Source: Escherichia coli (GTDB lineage: Bacteria > Pseudomonadota > Gammaproteobacteria > Enterobacterales > Enterobacteriaceae). From it: 64,000 nt of DNA. Within the stretch, counting starts at the first letter, position 1, and every line of letters starts with the position of its first letter. Where the stretch lies: the NCBI RefSeq assembly GCF_036507355.1, contig NZ_AP027877.1, one strand, 5' to 3'. The notes below the pieces were generated by a model. The model ran no database searches, was not told where the DNA came from, and worked only from the letters and a program-made list of their open reading frames with translations. Below are positions 1 to 61,568 of this stretch, piece after piece. A program made the position numbers and the translations under genes.

Positions 1-656
1 GCTATTTATCATTACTCGATAATACCGGTGAAATGCTGGTTGCTATAAATGACATGAATATTAGCAACGCTATTACAGCTGAATATCTCGCACAGCACCG
101 TGAATTTATTCAGAGGGCAAAGGTCATTGTCGCGGACTGTAATATCAGTGAAGAGGCACTGGCATGGATTCTGGATAATGCTGCCAACGTACCCGTATTT
201 GTCGATCCGGTTTCAGCGTGGAAATGTGTCAAAGTGCGCGACCGTCTAAATCAGATCCACACTCTGAAGCCAAACCGCCTTGAAGCGGAAACACTGAGTG
301 GGATTGCGCTGTCAGGGCGTGAAGATGTGGCAAAAGTTGCTGCCTGGTTCCATCAACATGGCCTGAACCGACTGGTATTGAGCATGGGCGGCGATGGCGT
401 TTATTACAGCGATATCAGCGGTGAAAGTGGCTGGTCTGCGCCGATCAAAACCAATGTTATTAATGTTACCGGAGCGGGCGATGCCATGATGGCGGGACTT
501 GCTTCGTGTTGGGTAGACGGAATGCCGTTTGCCGAATCTGTTCGTTTCGCACAGGGATGTTCGTCAATGGCGCTCTCCTGTGAATACACCAATAACCCCG
601 ATTTATCGATTGCCAACGTTATATCGTTAGTGGAGAACGCAGAATGTCTGAATTAA
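1..656 (+). CDS. psuK: pseudouridine kinase, PfkB family (partial; 5' end lies outside the window)
   Basis: Frame of ORF 33..656 stays open back to window position 1; ribokinase/PfkB-type C-terminal motif VTGAGDAMMAGL; 13-nt overlap with the following glycosidase gene; synteny with psuG/psuT. Confidence 0.85.
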   Translation, partial: YLSLLDNTGEMLVAINDMNISNAITAEYLAQHREFIQRAKVIVADCNISEEALAWILDNAANVPVFVDPVSAWKCVKVRDRLNQIHTLKPNRLEAETLSGIALSGREDVAKVAAWFHQHGLNRLVLSMGGDGVYYSDISGESGWSAPIKTNVINVTGAGDAMMAGLASCWVDGMPFAESVRFAQGCSSMALSCEYTNNPDLSIANVISLVENAECLN

Positions 657-1582
657 AAATTTCCCCTGAATTATTACAAATTTCCCCGGAAGTGCAGGAC
701 GCTTTAAAAAACAAAAAACCGGTTGTGGCGCTGGAATCGACCATTATTTCTCACGGGATGCCGTTCCCACAAAATGCCCAGACCGCAATTGAAGTTGAAG
801 AAACTATTCGTAAACAGGGCGCAGTACCTGCCACTATCGCCATTATTGGTGGCGTGATGAAAGTGGGTTTAAGCAAAGATGAAATTGAATTACTGGGTCG
901 TGAAGGGCATAACGTGACCAAAGTTAGTCGTCGCGATTTACCTTTTGTTGTTGCCGCCGGAAAAAATGGCGCAACCACTGTGGCTTCAACGATGATTATT
1001 GCGGCGCTTGCCGGAATTAAAGTATTTGCCACCGGGGGAATTGGTGGTGTTCATCGCGGGGCGGAACATACCTTCGATATTTCTGCCGATTTGCAAGAAC
1101 TGGCAAATACTAATGTCACCGTTGTTTGTGCCGGGGCGAAATCTATTCTCGATTTAGGATTAACCACTGAGTATTTAGAAACCTTCGGTGTGCCGTTAAT
1201 TGGCTATCAGACTAAAGCGCTGCCTGCGTTTTTCTGCCGCACCAGCCCGTTTGACGTCAGCATTCGTCTCGACAGCGCCAGCGAAATTGCCCGTGCAATG
1301 GCGGTGAAATGGCAAAGCGGGCTGAACGGTGGCCTCGTGGTAGCGAACCCGATCCCGGAACAGTTTGCTATGCCGGAACACACTATCAATGCGGCGATCG
1401 ATCAGGCGGTAGCTGAAGCTGAAGCGCAGGGTGTTATTGGTAAAGAAAGTACGCCATTCCTGCTGGCGCGCGTTGCTGAGCTGACCGGCGGTGACAGCCT
1501 GAAATTCAACATCCAGCTGGTGTTCAACAACGCCATTCTGGCGAGCGAAATTGCCAAAGAATATCAGCGTCTCGCGGGTTAA
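644..1582 (+). CDS. psuG: pseudouridine-5'-phosphate glycosidase
   Basis: 312-aa ORF, length and sequence match recalled E. coli YeiN/PsuG; overlaps kinase gene upstream (operon). Confidence 0.9.
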   Translation: MSELKISPELLQISPEVQDALKNKKPVVALESTIISHGMPFPQNAQTAIEVEETIRKQGAVPATIAIIGGVMKVGLSKDEIELLGREGHNVTKVSRRDLPFVVAAGKNGATTVASTMIIAALAGIKVFATGGIGGVHRGAEHTFDISADLQELANTNVTVVCAGAKSILDLGLTTEYLETFGVPLIGYQTKALPAFFCRTSPFDVSIRLDSASEIARAMAVKWQSGLNGGLVVANPIPEQFAMPEHTINAAIDQAVAEAEAQGVIGKESTPFLLARVAELTGGDSLKFNIQLVFNNAILASEIAKEYQRLAG

Positions 1583-1675
1583 TTTCTGACGGGCAGAAAG
1601 CCGTCGCCCGTACTGATCATACATACCGAAACCTGGCGCTGACGCCGGGTTTACTGGCATGAAGGGAAAATCATT

Positions 1676-2926
1676 ATGGATATAATGAGAAGTGTTGTGG
1701 GGATGGTGGTGTTACTGGCAATAGCATTTCTGTTGTCGGTAAATAAAAAGAGCATCAGTTTGCGCACGGTTGGAGCCGCACTGCTGCTGCAAATCGCTAT
1801 TGGTGGCATCATGCTCTATTTTCCGCCGGGAAAATGGGCAGTAGAACAGGCGGCATTAGGCGTTCATAAAGTGATGTCTTACAGTGATGCCGGTAGCGCC
1901 TTCATTTTTGGTTCGCTGGTTGGGCCGAAAATGGATGTCCTCTTTGACGGTGCGGGTTTTATCTTCGCCTTTCGCGTACTTCCGGCGATTATCTTCGTCA
2001 CTGCGCTCATTAGTCTGCTGTACTACATTGGCGTGATGGGGCTGCTGATTCGCATCCTTGGCAGCATTTTCCAGAAAGCCCTCAACATCAGCAAAATCGA
2101 ATCTTTTGTCGCAGTCACCACTATTTTCCTCGGGCAAAATGAGATCCCGGCGATCGTTAAACCGTTTATCGATCGCATGAATCGAAACGAGTTGTTTACC
2201 GCAATTTGTAGCGGGATGGCGTCCATTGCTGGTTCGATGATGATTGGTTATGCCGGAATGGGCGTACCAATTGACTACCTGTTAGCGGCATCGCTGATGG
2301 CGATCCCCGGCGGTATTTTGTTTGCACGAATTCTTAGTCCAGCAACCGAGCTTTCGCAGGTCACGTTTGAAAATCTGTCGTTCAGCGAAACGCCGCCAAA
2401 AAGCTTTATCGAAGCAGCGGCGAGCGGTGCGATGACCGGGCTGAAAATCGCCGCCGGTGTGGCGACGGTGGTCATGGCGTTTGTCGCAATTATTGCGCTG
2501 ATTAATGGCATTATTGGCGGAATTGGCGGCTGGTTTGGTTTTGCCAATGCCTCTCTGGAAAGTATTTTTGGCTATGTGCTGGCACCGCTGGCGTGGATCA
2601 TGGGTGTGGACTGGAGTGATGCCAACCTTGCGGGTAGCCTGATTGGGCAGAAACTGGCGATTAACGAATTCGTCGCTTACCTGAGTTTCTCCCCATACCT
2701 GCAAACGGGCGGCACGCTGGAAGTGAAAACCATTGCGATTATCTCCTTTGCGCTTTGTGGTTTTGCTAACTTTGGTTCTATCGGTGTTGTCGTTGGGGCA
2801 TTTTCGGCTATTTCGCCAAAACGTGCTCCGGAAATCGCCCAGCTTGGTTTACGGGCGCTGGCAGCAGCAACGCTTTCCAACCTGATGAGCGCGACCATTG
2901 CCGGGTTCTTTATTGGTTTAGCTTGA
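1676..2926 (+). CDS. psuT: nucleoside (pseudouridine) transporter, NupC/CNT family
   Basis: 416-aa polytopic membrane ORF; paralogous to nupX in this window; operon position after psuK-psuG. Confidence 0.85.
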   Translation: MDIMRSVVGMVVLLAIAFLLSVNKKSISLRTVGAALLLQIAIGGIMLYFPPGKWAVEQAALGVHKVMSYSDAGSAFIFGSLVGPKMDVLFDGAGFIFAFRVLPAIIFVTALISLLYYIGVMGLLIRILGSIFQKALNISKIESFVAVTTIFLGQNEIPAIVKPFIDRMNRNELFTAICSGMASIAGSMMIGYAGMGVPIDYLLAASLMAIPGGILFARILSPATELSQVTFENLSFSETPPKSFIEAAASGAMTGLKIAAGVATVVMAFVAIIALINGIIGGIGGWFGFANASLESIFGYVLAPLAWIMGVDWSDANLAGSLIGQKLAINEFVAYLSFSPYLQTGGTLEVKTIAIISFALCGFANFGSIGVVVGAFSAISPKRAPEIAQLGLRALAAATLSNLMSATIAGFFIGLA

Positions 2927-3821: not shown

Positions 3822-4763
3822 ATGGAAAAGAGAAAAATTATTCTGGATTGTGATCCGGGTCATGATGATGCTATTGCAATGATGATGGCAGCGAAACATC
3901 CGGCAATAGATTTATTAGGCATCACTATTGTAGCGGGTAATCAGACGCTTGATAAAACATTAATTAATGGCCTGAATGTTTGCCAGAAACTGGAGATTAA
4001 TGTTCCGGTTTATGCGGGGATGCCGCAACCCATTATGCGTCAACAAATCGTTGCCGATAATATTCACGGTGAAACCGGACTGGATGGCCCGGTATTCGAG
4101 CCGCTGACCCGCCAGGCAGAAAGTACCCACGCGGTGAAATACATCATTGATACCCTGATGGCAAGCGATGGCGATATCACTCTGGTGCCGGTTGGTCCGT
4201 TGTCAAATATCGCGGTGGCAATGCGTATGCAATCCGCAATCCTGCCCAAAATCCGTGAAATTGTGCTAATGGGCGGCGCTTACGGTACAGGCAACTTCAC
4301 GCCATCTGCCGAGTTCAACATCTTTGCTGACCCGGAAGCCGCACGCGTGGTGTTCACCTCCGGCGTTCCATTAGTGATGATGGGCCTCGATCTTACCAAC
4401 CAGACCGTTTGCACCCCGGACGTAATTGTTCGGATGGAAAGGGCAGGCGGCCCTGCCGGAGAGCTATTCAGCGACATCATGAACTTCACTCTCAAAACGC
4501 AGTTCGAAAACTACGGCCTGGCTGGCGGCCCGGTGCACGACGCCACCTGCATCGGTTATCTGATTAACCCTGATGGCATTAAAACCCAGGAGATGTACGT
4601 CGAAGTGGACGTCAACAGTGGCCCTTGCTATGGGCGTACCGTCTGCGACGAGCTGGGCGTTCTTGGCAAGCCCGCTAATACCAAAGTCGGCATCACTATT
4701 GATACCGACTGGTTCTGGGGCTTAGTCGAAGAGTGCGTGCGCGGCTACATCAAAACCCATTAA
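3822..4763 (+). CDS. rihB: pyrimidine-specific ribonucleoside hydrolase
   Basis: 313-aa ORF beginning [17 protein letters not shown] (nucleoside hydrolase DxDxxxDD aspartate motif). Confidence 0.9.
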
Positions 4764-5249: not shown

Positions 5250-5671
5250 CCTCGCGCATACAGCCGGGCAGTGACGTCATCGTCTGCGCGGAAATGGACG
5301 AACAGTGGGGCTATGTCGGGGCTAAATCGCGCCAGCGCTGGCTGTTTTACGCGTATGACAGGCTCCGGAAGACGGTTGTTGCGCACGTATTCGGTGAACG
5401 CACGATGGCGACGCTGGGGCGTCTTATGAGCCTGCTGTCACCCTTTGACGTGGTGATATGGATGACGGATGGCTGGCCGCTGTATGAATCCCGCCTGAAG
5501 GGAAAGCTGCACGTAATCAGCAAGCGATATACGCAGCGAATTGAGCGGCATAACCTGAATCTGAGGCAGCACCTGGCACGGCTGGGACGGAAGTCGCTGT
5601 CGTTCTCAAAATCGGTGGAGCTGCATGACAAAGTCATCGGGCATTATCTGAACATAAAACACTATCAATAA
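5168..5671 (+). CDS. insB: IS1 InsB reading frame (transposase catalytic part, expressed by -1 frameshift from insA)
   Basis: 167-aa ORF in -1 frame overlapping the insA 3' end, typical IS1 organisation. Confidence 0.85.
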
Positions 5672-23047: not shown

Positions 23048-23232
23048 TTGTAGGCCGGATAAGGCGTTCACGCCGCATCCGGCGACAGGAGCCAAATGCC
23101 GGATGCAACGCTGGCGCGTTTTATCCGGCCTACAATGAGCTCAACATACTGATTTGTATGGTTTTGTAGGCCGAATAAGGCGTTCAAGCCGCATCCGGCG
23201 ACAGGAACCAAATGCCGGATGCGTCTCTGGTT
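23048..23232. repeat. cluster of REP (repetitive extragenic palindromic) units / BIME
   Basis: Four units of GCCGGATAAGGCGTTCACGCCGCATCCGGC-type palindromes in alternating orientation between the convergent mglC and preA. Confidence 0.8.
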
Positions 23233-30398: not shown

Positions 30399-31757
30399 AT
30401 GACTCAACGACGTGATTTACAAGCACTTATCGATGCTGCTCCGGTCGGCAAGATGCAGTGGCGCGTTATCATCTGCTGTTTTCTGGTGGTAATGCTCGAT
30501 GGTTTTGACACCGCGGCTATCGGATTTATCGCCCCTGATATTCGCACTCACTGGCAACTCACCGCAGGCGATCTCGCCCCGCTTTTTGGCGCGGGTCTGC
30601 TAGGATTAACCGCAGGCGCACTGCTTTGTGGCCCGTTGTCCGATCGCTTTGGTCGCAAGCGGGTGATTGAGCTGTGCGTCTTTTTGTTTGGCGCGTTAAG
30701 CCTCGCCTCGGCTTTCTCACCGGATCTGCAAACGCTGGTCTTCCTGCGCTTTCTCACCGGCCTGGGTCTGGGCGGCGCGATGCCGAACACCATCACCATG
30801 ACCTCGGAGTATCTGCCTGCCCGCCGCCGCGGCGCGCTGGTGACGCTGATGTTTTGCGGCTTTACGCTGGGTTCGGCGTTTGGCGGGATTGTCAGTGCGC
30901 AGCTGGTGCCGGTGATTGGCTGGCACGGCATTCTGGTGTTGGGGGGCGTGTTACCGCTGATGCTGTTTGTCGCACTGCTGGTAGTTCTGCCGGAATCGCC
31001 ACGCTGGCAGGTGCGCCGCCAGCTACCGCAGGCGGTGATTGCGAAAACCGTCAGCGCCATCACCCGCGAGCGTTATGTCGATACCCACTTTTATCTCATT
31101 GAATCAGCCTCCGTTACAAAAGGCAGCATTCGTCAACTGTTTATGGGACGTCAGTTACCCATCACGTTGATGCTGTGGGTAGTGTTCTTTATGAGCCTGC
31201 TGATTATTTACCTGCTCTCAAGCTGGATGCCGACGCTACTGAACCATCGCGGCATCGACCTGCAACACGCGTCCTGGGTCACCGCCGCGTTCCAGATTGG
31301 TGGTACGTTAGGCGCGCTGGCGCTGGGTGTGCTGATGGATAAGTTCAATCCTTTCCGCGTGCTGGCGCTGAGCTATGCCATAGGCGCTATATGCATCGTG
31401 ATGATTGGCTTAAGCCAGGATGGATTATGGTTGATGGCGCTGGCGATTTTCGGCACTGGCATTGGCATTAGCGGATCGCAGGTGGGGCTGAATGCGCTGA
31501 CCGCAACACTTTATCCAACACAAAGTCGCGCCACGGGCGTGAGCTGGTCAAATGCTATCGGCCGCTGCGGCGCGATTGTTGGTTCGCTGTCTGGCGGCGT
31601 GATGATGGCGATGAATTTCTCTTTCGACACCCTGTTTTTCATTATCGCTGTGCCTGCGGCGATCAGTGCGGTGATGTTAACCCTGCTGATTACCGTGGTT
31701 CGCCAGTCGACCTCTGTCCCTGACTCACTGCCTCGCGCAGGCGTTGTGAACGAATAA
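30399..31757 (+). CDS. mhbT: MFS transporter (aromatic acid/H+ symporter family), probable 3-hydroxybenzoate/gentisate uptake
   Basis: 452-aa 12-TM ORF; first gene of the operon. Confidence 0.75.
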
Positions 31758-31768
31758 GGAGCATCCCA

Positions 31769-32797
31769 ATGACTGATAACAATCAAAATAGCCGCGAGCA
31801 ATTTTATCAGCATATTTCCGGGCAAAACCTGACCCCGCTGTGGGAGTCACTGCACCATCTGGTGCCGAAAACGCCCAACGCTAACTGTGCGCCAGCGTAC
31901 TGGAATTATCAGGAGATCCGCCCGCTGCTACTGGAGAGCGGCGGCCTGATTGGTGCGAAAGAGGCCGTGCGCCGCGTGCTGGTGCTGGAAAACCCGGCGC
32001 TGCGCGGGCAGTCTTCCATTACCGCGACTTTATATGCCGGTTTGCAACTGATCATGCCGGGCGAAGTGGCACCGAGTCATCGTCATAATCAGTCGGCGCT
32101 GCGTTTTATTGTTGAAGGCAAAGGGGCATTTACCGCCGTTGATGGCGAACGCACGCCAATGAATGAAGGCGATTTTATCCTGACCCCGCAGTGGCGCTGG
32201 CACGATCACGGTAACCCTGGCGACGAACCGGTTATCTGGCTCGATGGGCTGGATCTGCCATTAGTGAATATTCTGGGCTGCGGTTTTGCCGAAGATTATC
32301 CGGAAGAGCAACAACCGGTAACGCGTAAAGAGGGAGATTATCTGCCGCGTTACGCTGCCAATATGTTGCCGCTGCGGCATCAGACGGGGAACTCCTCGCC
32401 GATCTTTAACTATCGTTATGACCGCAGCCGCGAAGTGCTGCACGATTTAACCCGACTGGGCGATGCCGACGAGTGGGATGGCTACAAAATGCGCTACGTC
32501 AACCCGGTCACCGGCGGCTATCCGATGCCGTCGATGGGCGCTTTCCTGCAACTGCTGCCGAAAGGGTTTGCCTCACGCGTTGCGCGTACCACTGACAGCA
32601 CCATCTACCATGTGGTGGAAGGTAGCGGGCAGGTCATCATCGGCAATGAAACCTTCAGCTTTAGTGCAAAAGATATCTTCGTGGTGCCGACCTGGCATGG
32701 CGTGTCGTTCCAGACCACGCAAGATTCCGTTTTATTTAGTTTTTCGGACAGACCGGTACAAGAAGCCCTGGGGCTGTTCCGCGAAGCGCGTTATTAA
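31769..32797 (+). CDS. mhbD: gentisate 1,2-dioxygenase (bicupin)
   Basis: 342-aa ORF with cupin His motifs ([17 protein letters not shown]); typical gentisate dioxygenase length. Confidence 0.8.
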
Positions 32798-32811
32798 TTT
32801 AGGAGAGAAAA

Positions 32812-33513
32812 ATGACTCAATACGTATTCGAACCGCAAGCGCCCGTTACCGTACCGGTTGTTGGCAGTGATGAACAATTCCCCGTGCGCCGCGTTTACTG
32901 CGTCGGACGTAACTATGCCGCTCACGCCCGCGAAATGGGCTTTGATCCGGATCGTGAACCGCCATTCTTCTTCTGCAAACCGGCGGATGCCGTTGTTCCG
33001 GTTGCCGCTGGTGAAACGCTGGCGCTGCCGTATCCGGCACAGACCGATAACTACCATTACGAAATTGAACTGGTGGTGGCGATTGGTAAAAAAGGCAGCG
33101 ATATCCCGCTGGAACACGCCCATGAATATGTCTGGGGTTATGCCACGGGTCTTGATATGACTCGGCGTGACCGTCAAATGGAAATGCGCCAGATGGGCCG
33201 CCCGTGGGAAATCGGTAAAGCGTTTGATCTCTCAGCGCCCATCGCGCCGCTGCACAAAGCCCGCGATATCGGCGGTATTGATAATGCGCCAATCTGGTTA
33301 CAGGTTAACGGCGAAGATCATCAGCGCAGCGATATTCGCCATCTCATCTGGTCGGTGAATGAAACCATCAGCTATCTGTCAGGCTTCTTTGAGCTGCAAC
33401 CGGGCGATCTGATCTTCACCGGTACGCCGGAAGGGGTTGGCCCGGTAGTGAAAGGTGATGTGATCACAGGCAACGTCGAGGGCTTAACGCCTATCGCGGT
33501 GAAGATTGTCTGA
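32812..33513 (+). CDS. mhbH: fumarylpyruvate hydrolase (FAH family)
   Basis: 233-aa ORF with FAH-fold signatures ([14 protein letters not shown]; [10 protein letters not shown]). Confidence 0.75.
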
Positions 33514-33518
33514 GGTGC

Positions 33519-34166
33519 ATGATGAAGCTGTACAGTTTTTTTAATAGTTCAGCGTCGTACCGGGTACGCATTGCGCTGGCGCTGAAAGGCATTAATTACC
33601 AGACCGAAGGGGTGAATATCCGTATTGGTCAGCAAAATGAACTGGCCTATCGGCGGATGAATCCGGTCGGGCTGGTGCCGACGCTGCTGACTGACGAGGG
33701 CGAATCACTCGGACAATCGCTGGCGATTATTGACTGGCTGGAGAGGCACTACCCGCAAGTTCCGCTGGTGCCGCAGGAAGAGCCGGCCCGCAACAAGGTG
33801 CTGGAAATTGTCTATGCCATCGCTTGTGATATTCATCCATTGAATAACTTGCGCGTGCTGCGCTACCTGACCGAAGAACTGAACGTCAGTGAAGAAGAAA
33901 AAAAACGTTGGTATGCGCACTGGATCCAGCAAGGGTTAAGCGCGGTGGAACAACTGTTGCGCCAGAACCAGTCGGGGCAATTTTGTGTGGGCGAGACGCC
34001 GACGCTGGCAGATTGCTGCCTTGTCCCGCAGTGGGCGAACGCGCTACGCATGAACTGCGATTTGAGCGGGTATCCACGCTGCAAAGCGGTGTACGACGCC
34101 TGCACACAGCTGCCAGCGTTCATTGCCGCAGCGCCAGAAAATCAACAAGATAAAATTTCAGCCTGA
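33519..34166 (+). CDS. mhbI: maleylpyruvate isomerase (glutathione S-transferase zeta-like)
   Basis: 215-aa ORF with GST N-terminal fold (MKLYSFFNSSASYRVRIAL). Confidence 0.75.
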   Translation: MMKLYSFFNSSASYRVRIALALKGINYQTEGVNIRIGQQNELAYRRMNPVGLVPTLLTDEGESLGQSLAIIDWLERHYPQVPLVPQEEPARNKVLEIVYAIACDIHPLNNLRVLRYLTEELNVSEEEKKRWYAHWIQQGLSAVEQLLRQNQSGQFCVGETPTLADCCLVPQWANALRMNCDLSGYPRCKAVYDACTQLPAFIAAAPENQQDKISA

Positions 34167-34180
34167 CCAGGAGAACTATA

Positions 34181-35374
34181 ATGACGAAAGTGACACGCGC
34201 AGTAATTGTGGGAGGCGGGATCGGCGGTGCGGCAACTGCGCTGTCACTGGCCCGCCTGGGGATCAAAGTGGTGCTGCTGGAAAAGGCGCATGAGATCGGT
34301 GAGATTGGCGCGGGCATCCAGTTGGGGCCAAATGCGTTTTCGGCGCTGGACAGCCTCGGCGTCGGCGAAGTTGCCCGCCAGCGCGCGGTGTTTACCGATC
34401 ACATTACCATGATGGATGCGGTGAACGCCGAAGAAGTGGTGTGCATTGAAACCGGGCAGGCTTTTCGTGACCATTTCGGCGGCCCTTACGCGGTGATCCA
34501 CCGGGTTGATATTCACGCCTCGGTGTGGGAAGCGGTACTGACGCATCCGGACGTGGAATATCACACCTCCACCAACGTCGTGGATATTCGCGAGACGGAA
34601 GACGATGTCACCGTGTTTGACGATCGCGGCAATAGCTGGACCGGCGATATTCTGATTGGCTGTGACGGCGTGAAGTCAGTGGTGCGCCAGAGCTTATTGG
34701 GCGATGCGCCGCGTGTCACCGGACATGTTGTCTACCGTGCGGTTATCGATCGTGCCGATATGCCGGAAGATTTGCGCATTAACGCACCGGTACTGTGGGC
34801 GGGGCCGCATTGTCACTTGGTGCATTACCCTTTGCGCGGCGGCAAGCAGTATAACCTGGTGGTAACATTCCACAGCCGCCAGCAGGAAGAGTGGGGCGTG
34901 AAGGATGGTAGTAAAGAGGAAGTGCTCTCTTACTTTGAAGGGATTCACCCCCGTCCGCGCCAGATGTTGGATAAACCGACTTCATGGCGACGCTGGTCAA
35001 CCGCTGACCGTGAACCGGTGGCGAAGTGGGGAACGAAGCGCATAACGCTTGTGGGCGATTCGGCCCATCCGGTGGCGCAATATATGGCGCAGGGAGCCTG
35101 TATGGCGCTGGAAGATGCAGTAACGCTGGGTAAGGCGCTGGCGCAGTGTGAGGGTGATGCGGCGCAAGCCTTTGCGCTGTATGAGTCGGTACGAATTCCG
35201 CGCACCGCGCGCATCGTCTGGTCGACCCGTGAAATGGGGCGGGTTTACCACGCCGCAGGGGTAGAACGCCAGGTACGTAATCTGCTGTGGAAAGGGAAAT
35301 CGCAGGCAGAATTTTATCGCGGCATGGAGTGGTTGTACGGCTGGAAAGAAGATAACTGTTTGCAACCACGCTAA
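34181..35374 (+). CDS. mhbM: 3-hydroxybenzoate 6-hydroxylase (FAD-dependent monooxygenase)
   Basis: 397-aa ORF with N-terminal FAD-binding GxGxxG (VIVGGGIGGAATAL) and flavin monooxygenase core. Confidence 0.8.
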   Translation: MTKVTRAVIVGGGIGGAATALSLARLGIKVVLLEKAHEIGEIGAGIQLGPNAFSALDSLGVGEVARQRAVFTDHITMMDAVNAEEVVCIETGQAFRDHFGGPYAVIHRVDIHASVWEAVLTHPDVEYHTSTNVVDIRETEDDVTVFDDRGNSWTGDILIGCDGVKSVVRQSLLGDAPRVTGHVVYRAVIDRADMPEDLRINAPVLWAGPHCHLVHYPLRGGKQYNLVVTFHSRQQEEWGVKDGSKEEVLSYFEGIHPRPRQMLDKPTSWRRWSTADREPVAKWGTKRITLVGDSAHPVAQYMAQGACMALEDAVTLGKALAQCEGDAAQAFALYESVRIPRTARIVWSTREMGRVYHAAGVERQVRNLLWKGKSQAEFYRGMEWLYGWKEDNCLQPR

Positions 35375-35394
35375 GCACTTCTTCACCCAATCAG

Positions 35395-35450
35395 GCGCAC
35401 GGGCGGTCCCCTCGCCCCTTCGGGAGAGGGTTAGGGTGAGGGTAAAAATC
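35395..35450. repeat. GC-rich imperfect palindromic element at the gentisate-cluster/dusC junction
   Basis: GGCGCACGGGCGGTCCCCTCGCCCCTTCGGGAGAGGGTTAGGGTGAGGGT: CCCTCGCCCC/GGGAGAGGG imperfect inverted repeat. Confidence 0.4.
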
Positions 35451-35533: not shown

Positions 35534-36484
35534 ATGCGTGTGTTACTGGCTCCGATGGAGGGAGTGCTTGACTCTCTGGTGCGTGAATTGCTGACCGAAG
35601 TTAACGACTACGATCTGTGCATCACCGAGTTCGTCCGCGTGGTGGATCAACTGCTGCCGGTGAAAGTCTTTCATCGCATTTGCCCTGAGCTACAAAACGC
35701 CAGCCGGACACCATCCGGTACGCTGGTGCGCGTGCAGTTGTTGGGTCAGTTCCCACAATGGCTGGCAGAGAACGCCGCCCGTGCGGTGGAATTAGGTTCC
35801 TGGGGCGTGGATCTCAATTGCGGCTGCCCGTCGAAAACGGTTAACGGTAGCGGTGGTGGGGCGACGTTACTCAAAGATCCTGAACTCATCTACCAGGGTG
35901 CAAAAGCGATGCGTGAAGCTGTACCGGCGCATTTGCCCGTCAGCGTGAAAGTGCGTCTGGGCTGGGACAGCGGTGAGAAGAAATTTGAAATCGCCGATGC
36001 GGTTCAACAGGCTGGTGCTACGGAGCTGGTGGTGCATGGACGGACAAAAGAGCAGGGTTACCGCGCGGAGCATATTGACTGGCAGGCGATTGGCGAGATT
36101 CGCCAGCGGCTGAATATTCCGGTGATTGCCAACGGCGAAATCTGGGACTGGCAGAGCGCGCAACAATGCATGGCGATCAGCGGCTGCGACTCAGTGATGA
36201 TTGGTCGCGGGGCGCTCAATATTCCCAACCTGAGCCGGGTAGTAAAATATAACGAACCGCGAATGCCGTGGCCGGAGGTGGTTGCTTTGCTGCAAAAATA
36301 TACCCGTCTGGAAAAGCAGGGCGATACCGGGTTATATCACGTAGCGCGGATTAAACAGTGGTTGAGTTATTTGCGTAAAGAATACGATGAAGCAACAGAA
36401 TTATTTCAGCATGTTCGTGTGTTGAATAATTCCCCTGATATTGCAAGGGCTATTCAGGCAATTGATATCGGTAAGCTGCGATAA
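35534..36484 (+). CDS. dusC: tRNA-dihydrouridine(16) synthase
   Basis: ORF 35477..36484 trimmed to [21 protein letters not shown]... (~316 aa); Dus-family TIM barrel. Confidence 0.9.
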
Positions 36485-36871
36485 TAGTGGAATCGCAGTT
36501 TATCAGAGACAATGAATCGCTTATTCAGCTTCATCATCTTGTTGCGCTCCTTTCATGAGCTAAGCCACATATTGCCACTGGCGCAAGGAGCGCGCAGGGG
36601 GAGGACAATCGCCTCCTCCCCCTGCACCCCCGGGCTCTGGCGAACAAAATCGCCGCTGCGCGGTACCTTCAGCTTATCCCCTTCGGCTACCGGGTCGGGC
36701 GCGAGGAAACGTCCTTGTAAGACGCGCCCTCAGCCCACATCCATGTGGGCTGCCCCGGCCTTCGGGGAACGCTTCAGCGATTTTGACGCCACCAACACCG
36801 GAGCTGTTTGCAAATCAAGTACACAAAATATCTAGTTCCTGACCTGACAACTTATATGTCATATCTGATTT

Positions 36872-36955
36872 TTAAAATATCATCTTAAATACGCCAGTCA
36901 CCACCAGTAGCCCAATCAGGAAAATAATCAATACAGCCCAGAGTATAATTTTCAT
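36872..36955 (-). CDS. yohP: small single-TM membrane protein (27 aa)
   Basis: Read from sequence: MKIILWAVLIIFLIGLLVVTGVFKMIF with RBS-like AAGGAACGCC upstream; below the 60-aa track cutoff; matches recalled YohP. Confidence 0.8.
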   Translation of the reverse strand: MKIILWAVLIIFLIGLLVVTGVFKMIF

Positions 36956-37178
36956 TGGCGTTCCTTTATTTGTGAGTGCTGAATAAGTATAGGAAAAAAC
37001 GAAGCCCTTTGCCGTTATCCATAAACGATTAAGATAAATCGGAAGATATCATTCACTTAGTGTATATTTTTCTGGATATGTCGTTTTATTGCTACTGATG
37101 TATTGCCACGCGAAACTAAAAAATATATCGCAACACACGGTAATCTCCGCGCACCTTTTCTTACCTGATTATTCCCCC

Positions 37179-40927: not shown

Positions 40928-41056
40928 AGCATTTCCTCACGATTCTCCTTTGACGATCGCACTTTTTGCTCGTTATGATGGCGTCGCTAGCCTCAGTAAA
41001 TCCTTACTCCGGCGGTGCGCAACCCGTGCGCGTGAACCACTATCTGAATGCTCATC

Positions 41057-61484: not shown

Positions 61485-61568
61485 TAAAAAAACCTGCTGG
61501 TGAGGCAGGTTCTTTTATTTACTATTTTCAGGCCTAACACCACAGCCTGTGCAACATCGTGTTCCAAC
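61485..61568 (-). ncRNA. orzO: candidate OrzO-like antitoxin sRNA of the zor/orz type I TA locus
   Basis: Minus-strand sigma70 promoter (-35 TTGCAA 61603..61598, 17-nt spacer, -10 TATAAT 61580..61575) precedes a region whose transcript would be complementary to the zorO 5' UTR (direct DNA repeat 61549..61573 vs 61715..61739), ending at a minus-strand hairpin plus U-tract (stem 61492..61510, A-run 61485..61491 on plus strand). Boundaries approximate. Confidence 0.45.

Follow-up and report, generated by a model that had tools for sequence, protein, structure and literature searches.

The hairpin-dense block downstream of dusC in Escherichia coli as an orientation allele of the TRIP1c/RRS-dusC repeat

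The spacer between dusC and yohP in the Escherichia coli DNA analysed here (64,000 nt of contig NZ_AP027877.1, assembly GCF_036507355.1, hereafter the window) contains a GC-rich block dense in inverted repeats, which raises the question of whether this is a known element and how it would act. The two genes are convergent and the spacer is 388 bp long, within the gene order cdd, yohK, yohJ, dusC, yohP, mdtQ, yohF; the start of dusC was placed at 35534 from the 951-nt dusC in the RefSeq annotation of an identical spacer. An earlier note, made from the sequence alone, had delimited the block at 36590-36800 and considered that it could be a structured sRNA, a degenerate repeat family or a remnant of a mobile element.

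Identity of the block and distribution of its copies

Two published names apply to this locus. TRIP1 is the name given by Rudd (1999), and five loci, a to e, are distinguished by Li et al. (2024, PMC10888264), while RRS ("replication risk sequence") is the name for the dusC and lysO copies (Pham, Cox, Goodman; PMC10287960, PMC10592627), which in K-12 are ~222-bp, GC-rich repeats lying ~650 kb either side of dif (Pham et al., PMC10287960, PMC10592627). The K-12 dusC-yohP spacer holds the same element as the window, at the TRIP1c position between dusC (yohI) and yohP/mdtQ (yohG). In K-12 the lysO and dusC copies share a block of 220 bp in which 218 of 220 positions are identical, and window positions 36576-36795, which nearly coincide with the interval delimited by the earlier note, are identical to each K-12 copy at 203/220 positions (92.3%); the whole unit is ~12% diverged from the K-12 copy. 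Judged by this sequence comparison, the block is almost certainly TRIP1c, that is RRS-dusC, an element already described. The joint claim, that the block is TRIP1c/RRS-dusC and also acts at the DNA level through its structure, is given a probability of about 0.8.

Matches to a 386-bp spacer query were found in 5425 of 5426 complete E. coli genomes, at a median of three places per genome and at up to 8–9, so that the nucleotide search proposed in the earlier note did recover related copies. The full window-type spacer is present in only 1999 of these genomes; the rest match over the internal ~300 bp at ~91%, and the other locus of this match is the aqpZ-lysO spacer. A third copy, internally deleted, lies between putP and efeU, and further copies are found beside sstT (the TRIP1d locus) and copA (the TRIP1e locus). 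The copies at aqpZ-lysO, putP-efeU, sstT and copA thus sit at published loci (Li et al., PMC10888264), and the copies are fixed at the same loci across the 5426 genomes. The earlier note had named a conserved annotated repeat across strains as part of what would count against its reading: conserved it is, but in the RefSeq records inspected no feature is annotated in the spacer that holds it. Its suggestion of a degenerate repeat family was likewise half right, as this is a copy of the TRIP1/RRS repeat family, but a highly conserved one whose stems are kept by compensation (see below).

An exact 20-mer scan of species-representative genomes gave matches in Escherichia, Kluyvera, two MAGs and one Streptomyces (the last probably by chance), and since it missed the Klebsiella and Citrobacter homologues found by blastn, the scan does not define the taxonomic range. 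Those homologues came from a plasmid collection, where blastn detected matches in K. pneumoniae, K. aerogenes and K. variicola, along with one Citrobacter record, that cover exactly the 222-bp core at 81–85%; one K. pneumoniae record has 13 such places. Many of the matching records in that collection are 0.7–5 Mb in size and typed as non-mobilizable, and look chromosomal. The Klebsiella loci that were fetched differ from the E. coli loci, one K. pneumoniae locus contains two tandem copies, and in this genus the element behaves as a dispersed repeat family, more than a pair. A scan of viral contigs for a phage-borne copy returned a single match, which proved to be host DNA that holds aqpZ and the element and is broken up by a transposase-like ORF. 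In a search for the lineage of the window, no genome matched it above 99.3%.

Table 1. Features of the dusC-yohP region of the window (positions in the 64,000-nt stretch).
Feature	Position	Strand	Basis and remarks
dusC, tRNA dihydrouridine(16) synthase	35534..36484	+	ORF and RefSeq annotation of identical spacer; upstream flank
Segment inverted relative to dusC and yohP, compared with K-12	36502..36825		~324 bp; local alignment to the reverse complement of the K-12 spacer
TRIP1c/RRS-dusC repeat unit	36534..36809		Aligns across all loci and genera (17–19 copies; Escherichia, Kluyvera, Klebsiella)
Left hairpin, GCGCTCCTT ... AAGGAGCGC	36544-36552 / 36585-36593		9 nt, 100% complementary, 32 nt apart; helix 12
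Counterpart of the published ~222-bp RRS	36576..36795		K-12 lysO/dusC near-perfect repeat block maps here
12-bp perfect hairpin, GCAGGGGGAGGA / TCCTCCCCCTGC	36594-36605 / 36614-36625		100% complementary, 8-nt loop; overlaps G4 motif
G-quadruplex-type (G4) motif, GGGGGTGCAGGGGGAGGAGG	36612..36631	-	Only match in the window; 2 substitutions from K-12 motif GGGGGTGCAGGGGGCGGCGG
Long-range pair	36645-36660 / 36770-36785		16 nt, 81%; encloses the central hairpins
TwoAYGGAY-like module	36647..36786	-	Rfam RF01731, 25.9 bits against a gathering score of 43
Hairpin 2, GGGCGCG ... CGCGCCC	36697..36729		Minus-strand loop region ACAAGGACGU; read from sequence; helices 8 and 9, with compensated pairs
Hairpin 1, CAGCCCACAT cc ATGTGGGCTG	36731-36740 / 36743-36752		10 nt, 100% complementary; minus-strand loop AUGGAU
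CCCCG gcctt CGGGG inverted repeat	36753-36767		Read from sequence
yohP, 27-aa small membrane protein	36873..36956	-	RefSeq annotation of identical spacer and tblastn; downstream flank

Orientation alleles and the replication strand

The segment that is inverted with respect to K-12 spans nearly the entire dusC-yohP spacer, and blastn aligns it to the K-12 spacer at 88% identity on the minus strand. The window copy is an orientation allele of the same element and does not form a separate family. When the 64 kb are divided into 15 overlapping 8-kb bins, 13 have positive GC skew on the + strand, and the cumulative skew rises, so the fork would move in the + direction with the minus strand as leading-strand template; synteny agrees, dusC being co-directional with the fork. 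The minus (G4) strand of the window allele is accordingly predicted to be the leading-strand template, and the + (RRS-C) strand the lagging-strand template. In K-12, the strand carrying GGGGGTGCAGGGGGCGGCGG is the lagging-strand template at both loci (Pham et al., PMC10287960, PMC10592627), and this 'native' orientation, with the G4 strand as lagging-strand template, is not that of the window copy. The use of local GC skew (3–14-kb flanks) to orient the Kluyvera and Klebsiella copies was unreliable, as it contradicts synteny for two loci (L011 and L016), and was abandoned.

Flank-inclusive queries (at least 80% coverage, 5426 complete E. coli genomes) identified the K-12 type at dusC in 3311 genomes (61%) and the flipped, window type in 1999 (37%), and at lysO the K-12 type in 4029 and the flipped type in 982 (18%). 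These orientation counts independently reproduce those of Li et al. (PMC10888264), who list TRIP1c as 'reverse' in 2789 cases and forward in 2952. All four combinations of dusC and lysO orientation occur: K-12 has the K-12 type at both loci, O157:H7 (with only two copies in its genome) and E. coli E69 are flipped at both, strain 120899 is flipped at lysO while K-12 type at dusC, and E. whittamii and Escherichia sp. E1V33 are flipped at dusC while K-12 type at lysO. By arithmetic (1999 - 982), a flipped dusC copy occurs without a flipped lysO copy in at least 1017 genomes. The orientation alleles differ by ~12% and in their flanks, including the 3' end of dusC, and at lysO the entire spacer downstream of aqpZ differs between alleles. 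Because the window-type allele is common to E. whittamii and Escherichia sp. E1V33, which are other Escherichia species, the orientation alleles are old haplotypes and not the products of a fast switch. At the inversion junctions, similarity in the two directions was only weak and ambiguous, and neither inverted repeats nor target duplications stood out clearly.

The cited RRS papers make no mention of natural orientation variants, hairpins, O157 or Rfam, and the cited RRS and TRIP1 papers never relate the 'reverse' state of TRIP1c to the replication strand.

The fold, its conservation and its resemblance to TwoAYGGAY

The several strong inverted repeats described in the earlier note are all four present (Table 1), and only the spacing of the last was misjudged, its perfectly complementary 9-nt arms being 32 nt apart and not ~37 nt. 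Folding of both strands, also proposed there, was carried out on 36530-36810 as single-stranded DNA and gave -74.6 kcal/mol for the + strand (z = -6.76) and -79.6 kcal/mol for the minus strand (z = -7.07). None of 200 shuffles reached the native fold energy on either strand, and the block is therefore structured far beyond chance. A G4-type motif is predicted on the minus strand only, where the best 25-nt G4Hunter score is 1.92, compared with 1.24 on the plus strand. The two substitutions that separate the motif from its K-12 counterpart are both C-to-A, and the G4Hunter score of the motif is 2.4 in the window and 2.3 in K-12. Both differences from K-12 within the hairpin at 36594..36625 are compensated on the opposite arm, giving GGAGGA/TCCTCC in the window and GGCGGC/GCCGCC in K-12, a compensated double change. 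Hairpin 1 (36731..36752) is invariant in all Escherichia and Kluyvera copies and has one compensated stem pair in Klebsiella.

To examine covariation, 19 Escherichia, Kluyvera and Klebsiella copies were aligned on the G4 strand, with 74 predicted pairs. Standard pairs fill 98.9% of the cells, and 16 of the 74 pairs show changes on both sides, against 9.6 ± 1.6 in shuffles (0/500 reaching 16); when the structure was slid by 1–3 columns, only 0–3 doubly changed pairs remained. A 17-copy alignment without Klebsiella gave 10 doubly changed pairs against 4.6 ± 1.2. Compensated pairs are found in the closing stem (helices 2–4), and the helix of the G4 hairpin has four of them across genera. These patterns point to strong purifying and compensatory selection on the fold. 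The K. aerogenes copy has broken G5 runs (GGGAGTACAGAGGG) and a G4Hunter score of 1.25, down from 2.3, yet the opposite arm of its hairpin compensates with CCCTCTG, which keeps the stability at -19 kcal/mol. Since a pure G4 requirement needs no covarying C-rich arm, we infer that pairing is probably under selection, either alongside G4 potential or in its place.

Covariation is blind to the difference between RNA and single-stranded DNA. In all 15 copies compared, the fold of the G4 strand is 3.7–6.6 kcal/mol more stable than that of its complement, and this margin is the same in both orientations, so that a shift of fold stability toward the lagging-side strand in flipped alleles was not found among these copies. 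The asymmetry of wobble pairs (G.U versus A.C) leans to the G4 strand without being significant (6 versus 2 pairs, p = 0.14); in the larger alignment, one-sided changes leave G.U on the G4 strand at 9 pairs versus 3.

The covariance-model search advocated in the earlier note produced no Rfam family at gathering threshold on the block, and the miRNA and snoRNA matches are chance hits on GC-rich hairpins. The best match is TwoAYGGAY, for which the window copy lies below the gathering threshold, as do the K-12 copies (30.9 and 30.6 bits); Klebsiella copies give no match at E <= 1. Among the copies tested, only the Kluyvera sichuanensis homologue passes the RF01731 threshold, scoring 44.6 bits over the full model (P1, both hairpins, AG and CG junctions; E = 6e-6). 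The shared architecture is a closing stem, two adjacent hairpins with A-Y/R-GGA-Y loops, an AG linker and a CG after the second hairpin. In the window copy the P1 stem closing the two hairpins has its arms at 36645-36660 and 36770-36785, and the minus-strand loops are AUGGAU, which fits AYGGAY, and AAGGAC, which does not. The second loop is AGGGAU in K-12 and AUGGAC, AAGGAC or AGGGAC in Klebsiella, its position 2 often being a purine. As Klebsiella copies miss E <= 1 and loop 2 often has this purine, the core is called only TwoAYGGAY-like, a name that denotes resemblance. The RRS also has the G4 hairpin and the left hairpin, which are absent from the Rfam model. TwoAYGGAY was proposed as an RNA of unknown function (PMC2864571), whereas the RRS of K-12 has a demonstrated DNA-level effect.

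At the Kluyvera loci a second TwoAYGGAY unit, distinct from the first, lies on the opposite strand at a distance of ~100 bp (49.2, 47.4 and 40 bits). A covariance model built from the two-hairpin core of the RRS only (R1) scores 104 bits on the window at 36685-36760(-), and its best matches outside the RRS copies are these second Kluyvera units (21–23.5 bits, E ~0.02–0.07). Both TwoAYGGAY and the RRS are multi-copy in some genomes, Psychromonas having many TwoAYGGAY copies: in the part of the motif alignment examined, these carry loops ACAUGGAUGU and ACAGGGACGU (Weinberg et al. 2010, PMC2864571). As far as that part extends, the Psychromonas loops follow the same loop grammar as the window element, and it includes none of the checked enterobacterial accessions. 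Of 12 papers found to mention TwoAYGGAY, none deals with RRS or TRIP1.

Mode of action and alternative readings

For the K-12 element, polymerase blockage, gap formation, orientation dependence and conditional essentiality have all been shown by others. In vitro the G4 of the RRS stops Pol I, II and IV, and in vivo it lowers synthesis by Pol III, while an engineered inverted RRS gave no detectable RecA/SSB peak in vivo (Pham et al., PMC10287960, PMC10592627). Experiments on M13 and rolling-circle templates demonstrated effects directly at the DNA level, deletion of both copies from K-12 is impossible without a compensating 200-kb amplification, and deletion or inversion of both alters supercoiling genome-wide (RRS papers). 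In a 2026 single-molecule study, G4 on the lagging-strand template produced a gap of ~650 nt at nearly every replisome passage (Kusi-Appauh et al., PMC13308219), and with G4 on the leading template RRS-C still produced lagging-strand gaps, of ~325 nt in ~66% of passages (PMC13308219). The best explanation for the window element follows this mechanism. On unwinding by the replisome, the exposed lagging-strand template would fold into a very stable multi-hairpin structure, to which one strand of the element would add G-quadruplex potential; the lagging-strand polymerase would be blocked at the fold and restart downstream, leaving a transient post-replication single-stranded gap that would bind SSB and RecA. 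The RRS authors propose that the gap would release topological stress where the Ter macrodomain ends, a 'relief valve' that is their hypothesis.

For the window copy, which may be regarded as a natural 'inverted RRS', behaviour like that of the engineered inverted RRS would be expected. With its G4 strand on the leading template, it should form fewer and smaller gaps than the K-12 copy, and it might make few or none, because the engineered inverted RRS gave no RecA/SSB peak. Whether the window allele forms gaps in vivo at all is, by our analysis, an even bet. The commonness of flipped alleles (37% at dusC, and both copies in O157:H7) counts against explaining the element through gaps. Conservation of the A-N-GGA-Y loops hints at a role more specific than that of a generic roadblock, and a tentative, rather improbable reading is that selection keeps not a G4 roadblock but a specific multi-hairpin fold, with these loops and with a core of the orphan TwoAYGGAY class.

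Such a fold could also operate as RNA, with the minus strand as a structured RNA of the TwoAYGGAY class whose loops bind protein or RNA, and which would lie in the 3' UTR of yohP in the window orientation or of dusC in that of K-12. The minus-strand Rfam match of 25.9 bits, the Kluyvera homologue above the gathering score over the full model, the covarying stems with loops that stay A-N-GGA-Y, the better folding of the sense strand in every one of the 15 copies and the lean of one-sided changes to G.U on that strand all agree with this, and a non-coding RNA was also proposed by Li et al. (PMC10888264). However, the covariation fits single-stranded DNA equally, the wobble asymmetry is not significant, the E. 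coli and Klebsiella copies are under the Rfam threshold, and the M13 and rolling-circle experiments directly show effects of the DNA itself. The transcriptional context is also inconsistent, the sense strand being antisense to both flanking genes at K-12 lysO, and a scan of 36300-37150 on both strands detected no terminator-like site and no promoter-like site inside the element. The positive evidence for an RNA-level function is structural, and such a function is doubtful; so is the structured sRNA of the earlier note, since its sole RNA-family link is the sub-threshold TwoAYGGAY match and published work places the function at the DNA level. Unlikely, too, is a MITE-like or REP-like dispersed repeat, selfish or relic and without host function, whose orientations would arise from independent insertion or replacement. 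It would account for the variable copy number (median 3 and up to 8–9 in E. coli, 13 in one K. pneumoniae record), the occurrence of either orientation at the same loci, the internally deleted copy at putP-efeU, the tandem pair in K. pneumoniae, and the large inversions mediated by TRIP1 copies (Li et al., PMC10888264), but not for loci fixed across 5426 genomes, a fold under apparent purifying and compensatory selection, or the amplification needed for a K-12 double deletion. No associated transposase was seen, nor convincing terminal inverted repeats at the unit ends or target-site duplications, and these absences, together with the fixed loci, also speak against the mobile-element remnant suggested in the earlier note.

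Quite unlikely is a duplex protein-binding platform or domain-boundary site that marks the Ter macrodomain border through the palindrome CCCACAT-CC-ATGTGGG and its partner. In its favour, hairpin 1 shows no variation among the Escherichia and Kluyvera copies, unlike other stems, and the two copies are symmetric around dif, near the macrodomain borders; yet in Klebsiella the palindrome has a compensated A-T to G-C pair with the loop kept, the signature of a folded hairpin, there is no known binding protein, and the experimental effect of orientation is unpredicted by a symmetric duplex site. The occurrence of the same ~324-bp segment in both orientations at one locus resembles an invertible phase-variable switch that flips within a strain, and its size is similar to that of fimS (~314 bp). 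Against this stand the ~12% divergence between the orientation alleles, which extends to the flanks including the dusC 3' end and led to rejection of the switch, the window-type allele in E. whittamii and Escherichia sp. E1V33, and the lack of clear flanking inverted repeats or an adjacent recombinase gene, and a switch is very improbable. The ATG-initiated ORF of 107 aa at 36512..36835, noticed earlier and read there as non-coding, does exist and spans the block, but it has no NCBIfam match, is unannotated in the RefSeq records inspected and has the composition of translated GC-rich DNA. No frame is consistently open across copies, which vary in their longest open frame and are separated by 1-nt indels, and the segment is inverted in 61% of genomes. 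The non-coding reading was thus borne out, and a protein-coding gene was rejected as having next to no probability.

The preferred reading, a DNA-level element of the RRS type, can be set beside other bacterial systems. The window copy is like RRS-dusC of K-12 in its dusC-yohP locus, its 92.3% identity over 220 bp, its hairpin set, the retained G4-type motif and membership of a small family, and differs from it in its reversed orientation with respect to the fork and the flanking genes. The RRS authors know of one other bacterial sequence that triggers a programmed gap via a G-quadruplex during replication, the pilE-associated G4 of Neisseria gonorrhoeae; it serves pilin antigenic variation, is a short G4 and not a 220–300-bp multi-hairpin repeat, and is unrelated in sequence according to those papers. 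REP/BIME elements (naRNA4) are, like the element, GC-rich, palindromic, intergenic, dispersed and linked to gyrase and chromosome topology, but are much shorter, far more numerous and without similarity to it in sequence or model; Rfam naRNA4 matches the window at 23053-23130 and not in the block.

Three points go beyond the papers cited here, namely the strand meaning of the flip, the selection on the hairpins and the resemblance to TwoAYGGAY, and these are leads, not demonstrated functions. For annotation, labelling the spacer as TRIP1c/RRS-dusC is advised in place of a blank or an ORF call. Natural strains already supply the 'inverted RRS' genotypes that were engineered in K-12, and the maintenance of the G4 hairpin despite broken G-runs, together with the TwoAYGGAY resemblance, provides testable alternatives to a G4-centred model. 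If selection does keep a fold with a TwoAYGGAY core, as in the tentative reading above, RRS/TRIP1 would be the branch of TwoAYGGAY in enterobacteria, the many TwoAYGGAY 'RNAs' known from gut Clostridiales and from other gamma-proteobacteria might be single-stranded DNA elements that program gaps or recruit a loop-binding factor, and the 'native orientation' of K-12 would be one among several viable states.

The 3' end of dusC and its upstream neighborhood

The 3' end of dusC is unlike between the two orientation alleles of the repeat element, reading ...GGTAAGCTGCGATAA in the window (36470-36484) and ...GAGAAACTCTAA in the yohP/dusC spacer locus of K-12, and therefore the boundary of the orientation allele extends into the final dusC codons. 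The C-terminus of the dusC protein is thereby altered. Directly upstream of dusC lies a cluster for gentisate/3-hydroxybenzoate degradation, with genes for gentisate 1,2-dioxygenase, fumarylpyruvate hydrolase, maleylpyruvate isomerase and 3-hydroxybenzoate 6-monooxygenase; in K-12 and strain E308, yohJ and yohK are found at the same position. The arrangement of this cluster with dusC is present in 498 of the 5426 complete E. coli genomes (10-kb query, coverage of 80% or more), O55:H7 and O157:H7 included, and the genome search returned no match to the window above 99.3%. A scan of the window against Rfam at gathering scores gave the RNA motifs listed in the table.

Features in the window and at other loci of the element
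Feature	Sequence	Coordinates	Strand	Basis
Gentisate/3-hydroxybenzoate cluster	window	~31000-35400		
naRNA4, REP-derived	window	23053-23130	+	Rfam, 85.8 bits, above gathering score
Peptidase-S11 RNA motif	window	40972-41052	+	Rfam, 72.8 bits, above gathering score
OrzO-P antitoxin RNA (zor-orz type I toxin-antitoxin locus)	window	61486-61561	-	Rfam, 99.9 bits
Second TwoAYGGAY unit	L021, Kluyvera	4104-4167	+	49.2 bits
Second TwoAYGGAY unit	L023, Kluyvera	153-216	-	47.4 bits
Second TwoAYGGAY unit	L018, Kluyvera	5492-5556	-	40 bits
Element copy	L007, MAG contig (2.8 kb)	17-93	-	
Element copy	L007, MAG contig (2.8 kb)	467-542	+	
Tandem element copy	L025, K. pneumoniae	1170-1244	same strand	
Tandem element copy	L025, K. 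pneumoniae	1607-1681	same strand	
Element, lysO locus	L024, IMG/VR contig	~795-1000		
407-aa ORF	L024, IMG/VR contig	1006-2229		

Paired and multiple copies

At three Kluyvera loci, each copy of the element is accompanied by a second TwoAYGGAY unit about 100 bp distant, which is distinct in sequence from the element and has its own long closing stem. Since this second unit lies on the opposite strand, the Kluyvera repeat is a back-to-back pair with one sense unit per strand. In K. pneumoniae, two tandem copies 437 bp apart are located 3' of pcaC, and the 5.37-Mb source record matches the element at 13 places, a copy number far above that of E. coli. A MAG contig adjoining copA, the TRIP1e locus, also carries two copies, inverted and separated by about 400 bp; these could be a genuine head-to-head pair or have arisen by misassembly at a repeat.

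Interruption of the element and reported mutations in K-12

The sequence of an IMG/VR 'viral' contig is in fact host DNA, in which aqpZ precedes the lysO-locus copy of the element; this copy is broken off exactly within the G4 hairpin by an ORF that appears to resemble an IS4-family DDE transposase. The GC-rich hairpin of the element may be an insertion target.

An evolve-and-resequence study reported intermediate-frequency 'mutations' in the ybjE(lysO)/aqpZ and yohP/dusC spacers of K-12, at coordinates 915,226 and 2,229,177, respectively (PMC11510482). These are the two K-12 spacers that contain copies of the element, and the reported changes likely reflect reads mapped to the wrong copy, or gene conversion from one copy to the other, and not adaptive mutation.
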